From Chlorobiota bacterium (GTDB taxonomy: Bacteria; Bacteroidota; Bacteroidia; Bacteroidales; F082): a stretch of 64,000 nt of DNA. Location: positions 188-64,187 of the forward strand of contig JAUVKF010000008.1 of assembly GCA_030596395.1 (NCBI GenBank). The letters run 5' to 3'. The position numbers and the translations under genes are program-made. Below the pieces are notes generated by a model, which saw only the letters and a program-made list of their open reading frames with translations, had not been told where the DNA came from and made no database searches. This document shows, one piece after another, positions 57,872 through 61,250 of this stretch; position 1 is the first letter of the stretch, and every line of letters starts with the position of its first letter.

Positions 57872-58007
57872 AAAAACAGCATAAAGTAGTTTTCAATTAG
57901 CTCCTTTATTTGCTGATTCGTTGTTTCAATAAAACCTTTGGCATCTTTTATTAATTTCGCAGCGTTTTTCAATGCTGGAAATCAGCGCAATTAACAACGA
58001 ATTAATT

Positions 58008-61000
58008 ATGGGATACGATTTCGGGAAAATCGAAAAAAAGTGGCAGAAATTCTGGAAAGAAAACAAAACCTTCAAAGCATATAATAATTCCGACAAACCA
58101 AAATATTATGTGCTGGATATGTTTCCTTATCCATCAGGTGCTGGCCTGCACGTGGGTCACCCGCTTGGTTACATAGCATCCGATATTTATGCGCGTTACA
58201 AACGTCACCAGGGTTTTAATGTGCTGCACCCAATGGGTTATGATGCATACGGCCTTCCGGCAGAACAATACGCCATCCAAACCGGAACACATCCCGATAT
58301 CACCACCAACAAGAACATTGATAAATACCGCCAACAGCTCGACCACATTGGATTTTCGTACGATTGGGATCGTGAAGTAAGGACCAGTGATCCGTTTTAC
58401 TATAAATGGACACAATGGACCTTTATCCAGTTATTCAAATCATGGTACGATAACAATACAGGCAAAGCCAAAAGTGTTGACGGACTGATCAAAGAATTTG
58501 AGAAGAATGGGAATACTGGGGTAAACGCTGCATGCGATGAAGTTGAGCCATTTACGGCAGAAGACTGGAATAATTGGAATGAATCCGAACAACAACAGCT
58601 ATTGATGCATTACCGTCTTGCCTACCTTTCGGATACTATGGTGAACTGGTGTCCGGCATTGGGAACCGTTTTAGCCAACGATGAAGTTAAAGATGGATTT
58701 TCTGAACGTGGTGGGCACCCGGTAGAAAAGAAACTGATGAAGCAATGGTCGTTGAGGATAACTGCTTATGCTCAGCGTCTGCTTGATGGACTCGAAAAGA
58801 TTGATTGGTCCGAAAATGTAAAAGAGATTCAGCGCAACTGGATTGGCAGGAGCGAGGGGGCGAGTGTTGTTTTTGGCCTCTCCCCAACCCTCTCCACAGG
58901 AGAGGGAGTTGTTCCCCGATATCAAACTGCTGATAAGAAAACATGGCCCTTCATTAAGAATTCAATGCTTGAAGGACGACACAACCCAACTAAAGCAGAA
59001 GCCTTGATTTGGGATAAGCTTAGAAACAAGAGAATTGGTTATAAAATCAGGCGTCAACATGTTATTGATACATATATTCCTGATTTTGTTTGCTTAAGCA
59101 AAAAAACGGTAATTGAAATTGACGGAGGAATTCACGACAAACCTGATCAAAAAGAATATGATAATTTTCGAACAAAAAAACTTGAAGAACTTGGATTTAG
59201 TGTAATAAGATTCAAGAATGAAGAAGTTTTTAAAGAAATTGAAAATGTAGTAAATAGCATTAAAAAATATCTGGACAACAAAATTGTTGATTCTGAATCT
59301 TACAATGAAAACTTGACTTTTCCCTCCCCTGATGGGGAGGGCCAGGGTGGGGCAATAGAAGTCTTCACCACCCGCCCTGATACTCTCTTCGGCGCAACCT
59401 TCATGGTTCTTGCTCCTGAACATGAGCTGATTGATCAGATTACTACACTTGAGCAAAAAGAAAAAGTAGAAAAATATGTAAGGAGGGCAAAAAACCGCTC
59501 AGAACGCGAAAGAATGACCGAGGTAAAAAACATCACAGGCGTATTTACCGGAGCTTATGCTATTAATCCTTTGAATGGAGAAGAAATTCCGATCTGGACT
59601 GCCGATTATGTGTTGATGGGATACGGAACCGGGGCAATCATGGCGGTTCCCGGTCACGATAGCCGTGACTTTGCCTTTGCGCGTCATTTTAAGCTGCCCA
59701 TCATCCAGGTTGTGTCCAAAAAAGGTGAAGAACCAACCGATCCGTCAACCTGGGACGACAGCTACGATTCCAAAGAGGGTATTATGATCAATTCTGGTTT
59801 TATCAATGGCATGGATGTGACCAAAGCCATCAGGGCTACCATTGATGAATTGGAAGTCCTGGGAATTGGCTACGGAAAAATTAACTATCGTTTACGTGAT
59901 GCAATTTTCAGCCGCCAGCGGTATTGGGGCGAGCCTTTCCCAATCTATTACAAAAATGGTATGCCTTATCCATTGGACGAAAGCGAATTGCCTTTAAAAT
60001 TACCGCTGGTTGATAAGTATCTCCCGACTGAAAGTGGTGAACCACCCCTGGCAAGAGCAAAAAACTGGAAAACCAAAGAAGGTTATCCGCTCGAAACTAA
60101 TACCATGCCCGGTTTTGCCGGATCAAGCGGATATTATCTTAGGTATATGGACCCATGGAACGACAAGGAATATTTCTCAAAAGAAGCTAATCAATACTGG
60201 CGTAGTATTGACCTTTACCTTGGTGGTGATGAGCATGCAACCGGCCATTTGATTTACTCTCGTTTCTGGAACAAATTCCTGTTCGACCTGGGTCTGGTTT
60301 GCGAAGATGAACCTTATAAAAAATTGATCAACCAGGGTAAAATACAGGGCAGGTCGAGTTTTGTCTACCGCATTCAGGGGAAAAACCTGTTTGTATCGTT
60401 TGGTTTGAGAAAAAATTACGAAACACAAGCTTTGCATGTGGATATCAACATGGTGAATAACGATATACTTGACATCGAAGCCTTCAAAAACTGGCGGCCT
60501 GAATTTGCTGATGCAGAATTTATACTGGAGGATGGAAAATACATCTGTGGCCACGAGGTGGAGAAAATGTCGAAGTCAAAACTAAACACACAGAGTCCTG
60601 ATGATTTGATCCATAAATACGGGGCTGATACTTTGAGGTTGTACGAAATGTTCCTTGGACCTTTGGAACAGCACAAGCCATGGGACACAAAGGGAATTGA
60701 AGGTGTATTCAGATTTTTACGAAAACTCTGGCGCCTGTATTTTGACGATAATGATAATTTGATCATTACAGATAAGAAACCAACTGAAGATGAACAAAAG
60801 GTAATCCATAAAACCATTAAAAAAGTTCAAAGTGATATCAAGCGTTTTTCATTCAACACAGGGGTCAGCGCTTTTATGATCTGTGTTAACGAACTGTCTG
60901 ACCTCAAATGCCACAAACGGGAAGTGCTTGAACCGCTGTTGGTTTTGCTTGCACCCTATGCGCCGCATATTGCTGAGGAATTATGGGAAGCAACCGGCCA

Positions 61001-61250
61001 TGAAGGGGGAATCAGCTACGTATCAAATCCAAAATATGATGAAAAATACCTGGCTGAAAATACTTTTGCCTACCCGGTATCGTTTAATGGTAAGATGCGC
61101 TTTAAATTGGAATTGCCGATAGATATGGTCAAAGAAGAAATCGAAAAAAGGACAATTGAAGCTAGGGAAACACAAAAATGGATCGAAGGAAAAACAGTCC
61201 GTAAAATAATTGTTGTACCGAATCGAATCATCAATGTTGTTGTGGGCTAA
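58008..61250 (+). CDS. leuS: Leucine--tRNA ligase carrying an in-frame ~160-aa insertion
   Basis: [16 protein letters not shown] start, HVGH (HIGH) motif, [19 protein letters not shown] editing-domain entry, KMSKSK motif. ATG 58008 is preferred over 57972. About 1080 aa, whereas Bacteroidota LeuS is roughly 920-950 aa as I recall. Confidence 0.93.
58874..59353 (+). mobile_element. In-frame DUF559/Vsr-like PD-(D/E)XK endonuclease cassette inside leuS, flanked by GC-rich palindromes
   Basis: An extra block lies between [10 protein letters not shown] and [10 protein letters not shown]; E. coli-type LeuS has only about 10 residues here. The block reads [82 protein letters not shown], the DUF559 signature. 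Flanking palindromes are ccctctcc-aca-ggagaggg (58888-58906) and ccctcccc-tgat-ggggaggg (59322-59341). The core is visibly more AT-rich than the leuS flanks. Confidence 0.65.

Follow-up and report, generated by a model that had tools for sequence, protein, structure and literature searches.

A DUF559 nuclease cassette bounded by palindromic repeats and carried in frame within leuS: a probable selfish element persisting by read-through translation

Selfish elements that occupy essential genes spare their host by splicing out, introns at the RNA level and inteins at the protein level. The leuS gene of a Chlorobiota bacterium (GTDB lineage Bacteroidota; assembly GCA_030596395.1, contig JAUVKF010000008.1), located in a stretch of 64,000 nucleotides that was analyzed as a whole and is referred to here as the window, raises the question of how an essential gene can accommodate about 160 additional codons for a nuclease-like domain in its reading frame. 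The original prediction for this locus proposed a cassette, either selfish or domesticated, that is translated as a tolerated surface domain, and the results given below support this proposal. We consider it probable that the inserted segment (Table 1) is one copy of a selfish element that is bounded by terminal inverted repeats (TIRs) and persists in genes by read-through translation. On our best reading, the element belongs to a family of palindromes resembling repetitive extragenic palindromes (REPs) and Rickettsia palindromic elements (RPEs), the autonomous form of which encodes a homing-type nuclease.

The reading frame of the host gene is intact, and residues 302–461 of its product (nucleotides 58875–59354) are extra in comparison to the common relatives of 928 amino acids. 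The size of the insert and its in-frame position had been predicted correctly, whereas the interval 58874–59353 originally assigned to it lies one base out of frame. The ends of the insert carry the only two perfect GC-rich hairpins of the whole window, each with an 8-bp GC stem inside a repeat of ~31–33 nt. The palindromic flanks that had been guessed at are real: they are the TIRs of a dispersed palindromic repeat family. The reverse complement of TIR-R shares ~75% identity with TIR-L (manual alignment), making them imperfect inverted repeats, and the two stems differ at one position, at which each has kept its own complementary partner. Between the repeats the cassette is an open frame without a start or stop codon of its own; the in-frame Met expected at 58965 exists. 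GC content is 0.31 between the end repeats versus 0.43 in the rest of leuS, in agreement with the AT-rich core noted earlier, and 0.68 and 0.78 in the two end repeats themselves. Neither a second DUF559 copy nor a second leuS or a further hairpin repeat was found in the 64 kb.

Table 1. Features of the leuS gene and of the element inserted in it (window coordinates).
Feature	Position	Strand	Remarks
leuS coding sequence with element	57972..61250	+	single uninterrupted open reading frame, 1092 aa; end coordinate includes the stop codon
Conserved LeuS left flank	58836..58874	+	last host codons before the element; anchor invariant in 120 LeuS sequences
Whole element	58876-59353	+	~480 bp, TIR to TIR, inside the leuS frame
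TIR-L	58876..58906	+	C-rich head GCCTCTCCCCAA, then hairpin CCCTCTCC-ACA-GGAGAGGG at 58888-58906; translated
Linker and N-terminal extension (PRYQTAD..W..IK)	58907..58976	+	conserved in LeuS-borne and free-standing copies; in-frame ATG 58965-58967
DUF559/Vsr-like PD-(D/E)XK core	58977..59273 (aa 336-434)	+	PF04480; candidate catalytic residues in PDFVC 59079-59093 and IEIDGGIH 59112-59135
C-terminal tail of element protein and variable spacer	59274..59321	+	IKKYLDNK motif 59259-59282 starts inside the DUF559 core
TIR-R	59322..59353	+	hairpin CCCTCCCC-TGAT-GGGGAGGG at 59322-59341, then G-rich tail CCAGGGTGGGGC; translated
Conserved LeuS right flank	59355..59384	+	strand leading into the CP1 editing domain (E461-466 in the model)

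The assignment of the core to a DUF559/Vsr-like nuclease was borne out by profile and structure searches. The insert alone matched PF04480 (DUF559) with 109.4 bits (cut-off 20.6, E 1.1e-31, profile positions 11–108 of 109), and the same family was recovered within full-length LeuS at E 3e-30. The Pfam scan of the element returned DUF559 only, plus an overlapping sub-threshold match to MTES_1575, a related restriction-endonuclease family, and no recognised transposase. By sequence the insert matches the structural-genomics protein 3HRL (PDB) at E 6e-19, and this protein also ranked first in the Foldseek search (template modelling score, TM, 0.82). It was followed by the catalytic domain of I-Bth0305I (3R3P; TM 0.76, probability 1.00), to which the nuclease of the element is only ~20% identical in sequence, and then by E. 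coli Vsr (1VSR/1CW0). According to a published survey, VSR, DUF559, DUF2726, and 3R3P form one PD-(D/E)XK clade (PMC3424549). The score against the Vsr family TIGR00632 was 18.3 bits versus a cut-off of 97.85; judged by these matches, the domain is related to Vsr by fold and is no Vsr orthologue.

AlphaFold2 modelled the insert alone with a predicted local distance difference test (pLDDT) value of 83, exceeding 90 in the core, and left both TIR-encoded ends disordered. In the model of full-length LeuS the core (residues 337–440) is folded, residues 306–331, which are followed by a helix, and 441–460 have pLDDT values below 50, and the module hangs between strands 297–303 and 461–466, which lead into CP1. 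The insert is thus predicted, in accordance with the earlier proposal, to form a domain of its own that is joined by flexible linkers to these two strands, at what the model presents as the tip of the beta-hairpin leading into the CP1 editing domain. The predicted product is LeuS with a module in which two low-confidence linkers rich in Pro, Gly, and Ser, the translated repeats, surround a folded nuclease domain.

Presence and absence of the insert were compared among the 120 best LeuS relatives, which are 66–100% identical to the window protein and annotated as Bacteroidales or Marinilabiliales metagenome-assembled genomes (MAGs). All 120 align around the anchors NWIGRSEG....F and (I)EVFTTRPDT. 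The DUF559 insert is present at the identical codon in 38 of them; four were scored as carrying a scar or an internally deleted remnant (P0064, P0070, P0078, and P0143) and 78 as empty, and since one of the latter (P0088) shows a short remnant, 77 have a clean 8-residue loop. The nearest relative of the window protein, P0064 (locus L082; 94% identical, dS 0.33), lies in the same GT9-DAGK-leuS neighbourhood and keeps only a 13-residue solo-palindrome scar at the insert site. Along the syntenic series of orthologous loci, L082 has the scar, L083 is empty, L084 and L085 are full, and L086 is internally deleted. The protein of the last (P0070) has lost the nuclease and kept both TIRs as well as the YLDNK tail, which is also found in the 38 filled copies; P0143 is a bare TIR doublet. 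All stages of decay were found in this way, from a degenerate nuclease motif through an internally deleted doublet and a solo-palindrome scar to the clean empty site.

In a neighbor-joining (NJ) tree of the host part, filled and empty LeuS are thoroughly interleaved, and for 13 of the 38 filled proteins the nearest relative is an empty one. The extreme case is P0084/P0172, with a divergence K of 0.042 to an empty sequence versus 0.264 to the nearest filled one. This pair, P0068/P0107, and P0085/P0151 are cases in which a filled protein is 95–96% identical to an empty one and ~80% identical to the next filled one. Three further filled proteins (P0059, P0060, and P0061) share one common junction that lacks the ancestral loop, and the closest relative of each is an empty LeuS in which the loop is retained. 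As independent deletions could hardly reach this pattern, the compared sequences appear to require lateral replacement of one allele by the other. Taken together with the scar in the closest relative and the predominance of clean empty sites, the orthologue alignment shows an insertion and not an ancient shared segment.

Several further observations were made on the same set of proteins. Eight of them (P0067, P0114, P0140, P0144, P0153, P0171, P0173, and P0174) carry a second, different insert of ~110 residues at LeuS core position ~631, corresponding to ~60370 in the window between FVYR and ALHVDI, where the window protein has none. Its pattern AE..LW ... RKFDF ... IIEIK looks PD-(D/E)XK nuclease-like, the only Pfam match is a sub-threshold one to the SfsA nuclease domain (E 0.0055), and it is found both in proteins that have the DUF559 insert and in proteins that lack it; in P0111 a remnant seems to be left. 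In P0097, P0101, P0103, and P0138 (LeuS of 1210–1333 aa) the inserts comprise 308–387 residues, made up of one DUF559 domain plus several tandem or nested repeat doublets that read TPP.PSP.GRE ... VLPFGEDLGGV, and repeats therefore seem to accumulate inside a LeuS site that is already occupied. Precomputed Pfam matches list DUF559 (PF04480) beside tRNA-synthetase domains for the LeuS relatives, some of which are named 'leucyl-tRNA synthetase'; the architecture is thus visible in public annotations but appears to have been left uninterpreted.

The element was also sought beyond LeuS: a query alignment built from the insert and related sequences was scanned against one genome for each GTDB species and gave at least 581 confirmed matches; all copy statistics below refer to the best 80 loci among these, which contain 82 copies. 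Seventy-one copies are embedded in frame in long open reading frames (ORFs), and every one of the 71 is open through both junctions. The hosts, identified on both sides of the module by NCBIfam and Pfam, are about 20 different proteins across Bacteroidota. In these the positions of the element are fixed, and the hosts include LeuS (two sites), MetH (three or more sites), IleS, MetG, RecG, RecJ, an Lhr-like helicase, IcmF, WecB, acetyl-CoA synthetase (Acs), adenine deaminase, a LegC-type aminotransferase, Gmk, LeuC, MurF-Alr, a Type ISP restriction enzyme, and a SpoIID-like protein. With some 20 host proteins carrying this type of element, it is no peculiarity of LeuS. Among cultured strains, carriers are Pedobacter miscanthi, Cellulophaga baltica DSM 24729, Flavobacterium difficile, Mucilaginibacter sp. 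OK268, Aequorivita todarodis, Polaribacter sp. BAL334, and Marivirga aurantiaca; in the first two the host protein is LeuS, and in F. difficile it is RecG. The LeuS site of the window (site A) is occupied at the same position in Sphingobacteriia, Chitinophagia, Cytophagia, Flavobacteriia, and Bacteroidia, and the left and right LeuS flanks border the element alike in these five classes. The remaining 11 of the 82 copies lie in short ORFs with their own Met and stop codon inside the TIRs and, where checked, in operon spacers along the direction of transcription. Among 1.84 billion representatives of 50%-identity clusters, 21,053 relatives of the insert were found at E ≤1e-3, and 85 of the best 150 exceed 220 aa.

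An assembly chimera or annotation artefact would be conceivable for the window because it stems from a metagenome-derived assembly (Logan/NCBI contig), but the probability of this is negligible. The same protein was found in two sources, 38 independent LeuS proteins and isolate genomes carry the insert, and synteny is conserved, so that such independent occurrences in effect already refute an artefact.

We regard it as highly improbable that the segment is removed before the mature protein is formed, by some unrecognised intein-like, intron-like, or translational-bypass route with the hairpins as signals. Stable hairpins do lie exactly at both junctions. However, the view that the insert is not an intein, already put forward in the original prediction, was upheld: the Pfam scan gave no Hint or intein family, and the junctions F|GLSP... 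and ...QGGA|IEV have neither Cys/Ser/Thr nor His-Asn. Rfam covariance models likewise gave no match to an intron or other RNA element at E ≤1 on either strand of 58300–59900. All 71 intragenic copies are in frame and stop-free, which neither removal from the RNA nor translational bypass would call for. Linker length and sequence vary, and solo repeats are also found in frame, in either orientation.

Some individual loci from these searches deserve mention. Free-standing copies in three Prevotellaceae (L044, L056, and L063) and one Bacteroidales MAG (L067) occupy argG-[element]-argC and mraY-[element]-murD spacers, with the stop codon of the upstream gene only 3–4 nt before TIR-L. One leuS of a Paludibacteraceae MAG (5N463, nanopore; L036 3581–6300) holds two DUF559 elements, one at site A and one at site B, the latter lying before LE.TTMPGWAGSS. 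This gene has a frame break between two overlapping ORFs that may be a sequencing indel; the copy at site B has its closest match in the site-A element of a Paludibacter genome, a hint of movement within the lineage. In L006, L012, and L016 a Type ISP restriction-modification enzyme has the element in frame in its C-terminal specificity domain, which puts a nuclease module inside a defence nuclease. The top-scoring cluster representative (P0179, 377 aa) differs from the single-copy inserts in having DUF559 three times in tandem, with degraded motifs in the first and second domains. A few copies found outside Bacteroidota that share the hairpin ends (L026, Ignavibacterium sp.; L078, Candidatus Saccharibacteria MAG; L071, Janthinobacterium lividum MAG) could reflect real spread or bin contamination. 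A phage vector was considered and found unsupported, as a scan of viral contigs gave only distant DUF559 relatives (≤42% identity).

The nuclease itself seems to have been maintained. When the window is compared with L084 or L085, dN is 0.17–0.18 for the insert core, with saturated dS (>2), and 0.10–0.16 for the host LeuS; to judge from these rates, the core is under strong purifying selection. The acidic residues that had been expected to be catalytic are intact in the window copy (PDFVC and IEIDGGIH). A catalytic-type motif is intact in ~33 of the 38 LeuS copies, which had been collected irrespective of the nuclease, and is degenerate in one LeuS clade (P0091, P0093, P0119, P0124, and P0129). 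In the embedded copies of the genome scan, the D of DFVC is kept in 71/71 and the Q of RRQH in 69/71; conservation of E, D, and H is unusable in this set because the scan pattern required these residues, while the D and Q just mentioned lie outside it. The dN/dS values, the retention of the motif, and the fold match point to a putatively functional nuclease.

Selection near the level of LeuS would also be expected of a domesticated module, whose nuclease serves the cell in mismatch or very-short-patch-type repair, defence, or hairpin/cruciform resolution and is carried by abundant housekeeping proteins. The phylum-wide persistence of the element and the DNA-repair hosts RecG, RecJ, and the Lhr-like helicase fit this explanation as well. 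It is nonetheless distinctly unlikely in our view: the insert is patchy even among near-identical LeuS, all decay stages occur, dead motifs included, and the hosts are functionally unrelated (aminoacyl-tRNA synthetases, MetH, IcmF, WecB, Acs, and Gmk). TIRs and non-autonomous derivatives likewise speak against service to the cell, as does the Vsr score far under the family cut-off.

The ends of the element provided a further line of evidence for a selfish, repeat-bounded unit. TIRs with an alignment score of ≥36 were found in 38 of the 82 copies; they are ~30–40 bp long, and some are perfect over 33–39 bp (perfect or near-perfect: L028 36/36, L054 33/33, and L036 38/39). A perfect stem of ≥6 bp is present in 68 of 76 TIRs versus 2.3% of shuffled sequences. 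These stems comprise 22 different sequences, which indicates that palindromy has been kept through compensating changes. Perfect hairpins flank the cassette on both sides in 45 of the 82 copies, against a background of ~0–1.7 per kb, mostly ≤0.5 per kb. One candidate signal was rejected: TIR-L is stop-free in three frames in 24 of 38 copies versus 9% of random host-like sequence, as if by design, but composition-matched shuffles reach 48%, so that the absence of stop codons is a by-product of composition and no extra signal.

The peptides LSPTLSKGEG and TPPQPSPEGRE / LTPNPSPKERG are one DNA motif read in different frames. The 31-nt TIR motif GCCTCTCCCCNNCCCTCTCCANAGGAGAGGG was matched exactly at least 121 times in metagenome contigs; among the 121 matches listed, no more than 3 adjoin DUF559 and 118 are without the gene, so the repeat alone is far commoner than the nuclease. 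Most matches are solo 33-nt units or inverted doublets of ~85–120 bp, and nuclease-free doublets are exemplified by P0143, P0070/L086, L171, L172, and L202. Such repeats are also found in frame inside genes, in both orientations: for 32 non-redundant solo units or doublets, the surrounding ORF is free of stop codons and the repeat lies ≥60 codons within it. Ten of these ORFs were scanned with NCBIfam and six were named, as AlaS, HisS, IleS (two sites), RlmD, and a SpoIID-domain protein; the host of L211 was read from flanking motifs as LeuS. One of the solo-repeat sites in IleS is the site of the full element in P0054 and P0055. Individual nuclease-free repeats in frame are L176/L277 (AlaS), L213 (HisS), L239/L245 and L241 (IleS), L172 (RlmD), and L211 (LeuS). 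To judge from the frame, solo and doublet repeats would be translated, as LSPALSKGEG in the sense orientation and as PSPLERAGER or LSFGEGRGEA in the antisense orientation.

The strongest competitor to a mobile element is an ancient, immobile relic: a single leuS insertion near the base of Bacteroidota, inherited vertically and repeatedly deleted, with the nuclease kept only because the inserted domain would harm LeuS if it did not fold. This explanation shares much of its support with the points that weigh against our own interpretation, which are collected here. The tree of the insert agrees in part with that of the host (Spearman 0.51 over 703 pairs), filled LeuS clades match host clades, and the insert always diverges about 2-fold faster than LeuS (mean K 0.65 versus 0.28); congruence and faster divergence imply that much of the history of the insert was vertical. 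No element was found to be closer between two genomes than its host gene in the LeuS comparison, and no near-identical copies at different sites were found, so that no mobility event has been caught. The TIRs of the window have diverged to only ~75% identity, and the scars show that deletion occurs. NJ trees on short and divergent alignments are, moreover, weak evidence. Among eight pairs of filled and empty LeuS compared for co-conversion, only P0084/P0172 shows mismatches clustered beside the site (9 versus 2.9 expected), in a region that is variable anyway, and no co-conversion tracts were seen in the others. A target-site duplication outside the TIRs was absent from all 38 copies with a TIR score of ≥36. 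The pLDDT of the full-length AlphaFold2 model is only moderate (70.7), and we infer the retention of the insert in LeuS mRNA and protein from the conservation of the frame.

Still, the relic is rather unlikely as an explanation. It needs many independent precise losses, each restoring an 8-residue loop that is absent from filled alleles such as that of the window, and it has to account for filled/empty pairs at K ~0.04 inside otherwise empty clades. Folding constraint alone would not hold D/E/D/H and Q across lineages. Some loci have perfect TIRs of 33–39 bp, and the element occurs in ~20 host proteins, at several sites per host, and in two copies in one leuS.

For the TIR-bounded selfish element, whose mobility we infer, a mechanism can be proposed. 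The nuclease would act on a specific DNA target, for instance a palindromic one, probably in the form of a dimer; among its solved relatives, the closest of known function is a homing endonuclease. The resulting break would be healed by recombinational repair that copies the element, and such copying may spread it between alleles in a homing-like manner and rarely to new sites. In essential genes only frame-preserving insertions would survive. Deletion between the near-palindromic ends would drop the nuclease and leave a short repeat. In the window copy the TIRs have diverged, and the nuclease appears intact and selected; this copy is probably an old resident and not a recent arrival.

The host gene otherwise has the features of a regular bacterial leuS. 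Its product meets the equivalog level of TIGR00396 (918.7 bits versus a cut-off of 548.4), and the class I signature motifs HVGH (58149–58160) and KMSKS (60564–60578) are present. The listed ORF opens 12 codons upstream of the start at MGYDF, and because most LeuS relatives begin there, translation likely starts at Met13 (58008), in which case nucleotides 58008 onward form the gene and 57972–58007 are probably untranslated. The gene order GT9-DAGK-leuS-DUF3108 is common to the window and the orthologous loci L082–L084.

In place of splicing, the element appears to use a third strategy, that is, staying in the protein by means of flexible linkers and a tolerant loop beside a highly conserved motif. 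If this is true, it would correspond to inteins in function but do without splicing, the RPE-like solo repeats would be its non-autonomous derivatives, and DUF559, a large family of unknown function, would gain a role as a repeat-associated or homing nuclease. A broader claim, which we put forward tentatively and with less confidence than the reading of the window copy itself, is that these loci represent a phylum-wide, undescribed class of mobile elements, namely REP-like repeats whose autonomous members are open DUF559 cassettes that colonise essential genes and are translated as surface domains. The results tie DUF559 to a dispersed palindromic repeat, in an arrangement like that of REP and RAYT with another enzyme. 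Hundreds of Bacteroidota housekeeping proteins hold a nuclease module of 150–400 residues that annotation pipelines hide under names such as 'leucine--tRNA ligase', with consequences for orthology, phylogenetic markers, and structure prediction. Aminoacyl-tRNA synthetases, MetH, RecG, and others evidently tolerate a whole domain at the insertion sites, and if the nuclease is site- or structure-specific, it is a possible new compact reagent.

Searches of open-access papers and bioRxiv found no description of DUF559 elements in frame in housekeeping genes, of the repeat family, or of such a LeuS architecture, which had already been suspected to be undescribed; the element family is apparently undescribed as well. 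Among known systems, inteins with a homing endonuclease resemble it in several respects. They are likewise found in frame at fixed conserved positions of essential genes (aminoacyl-tRNA synthetases, DNA metabolism), without a start or stop codon of their own, encode an endonuclease, and are sporadic, with degenerate and minimal forms beside empty sites. Unlike inteins, the element has no Hint domain and no junction nucleophiles, so that the module presumably stays in the mature protein; its ends are inverted hairpin repeats, and its nuclease is Vsr-like PD-(D/E)XK and not LAGLIDADG or HNH.

The predicted catalytic domain has, in the model, the same fold as the I-Bth0305I family (3R3P). I-Bth0305I is a homodimer and shows its highest specificity at a pseudopalindromic site (Taylor et al., 2011, PMC3239194). 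Homing endonucleases of the Vsr-like type are encoded in group I introns, in inteins, or between the halves of split inteins (Dassa et al., 2009, PMC2677866; PMC3239194). In contrast to these, the gene of the element is fused directly into the host frame, and its role as a nuclease is a predicted one. Presence and absence at one identical site of orthologues, as is typical of homing genes, was found here for the LeuS codon among the 120 relatives, and the element uses this site in five classes. In T-even phages, free-standing homing endonuclease genes carry out 'intronless homing'. The free-standing copies that fill narrow gaps between conserved genes of an operon are reminiscent of these, but reside on bacterial chromosomes, belong to a different nuclease family, and possess TIRs.

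With respect to the repeats, the RPEs reported by Ogata and colleagues in 2000 are said to be short palindromic repeats lying in frame in protein genes of Rickettsia, where they are reportedly translated and accommodated at the protein surface. Solo and doublet repeats of the present family are similarly in frame in protein genes and, as far as the frame indicates, translated. Whereas RPEs occur in Rickettsia and are not known to encode an enzyme, the present family is found in Bacteroidota, apart from one Ignavibacterium match, and has an autonomous-looking form with a nuclease. For REP/REPIN sequences with RAYT, Nunvar in 2010 and Bertels and Rainey in 2011 reportedly described a gene between inverted hairpin repeats together with many dispersed repeats. 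The same arrangement is seen here, with the dispersed solo and doublet repeats counted across metagenome contigs. RAYT, however, is an HUH/Y1 transposase (IS200/IS605-like) and the enzyme of the element is a PD-(D/E)XK protein of DUF559, and REPs are extragenic whereas the repeats of the element are often intragenic and in frame. TIRs and non-autonomous deletion derivatives are shared with TIR transposons and miniature inverted-repeat transposable elements, from which the element differs in showing no target-site duplication and no recognised transposase. The element is a mixture of traits, combining those of REP/RAYT, of RPEs, and of inteins and homing genes, and it lacks a defining feature of each of these systems (Hint domain, ribozyme, HUH transposase, or target-site duplication).

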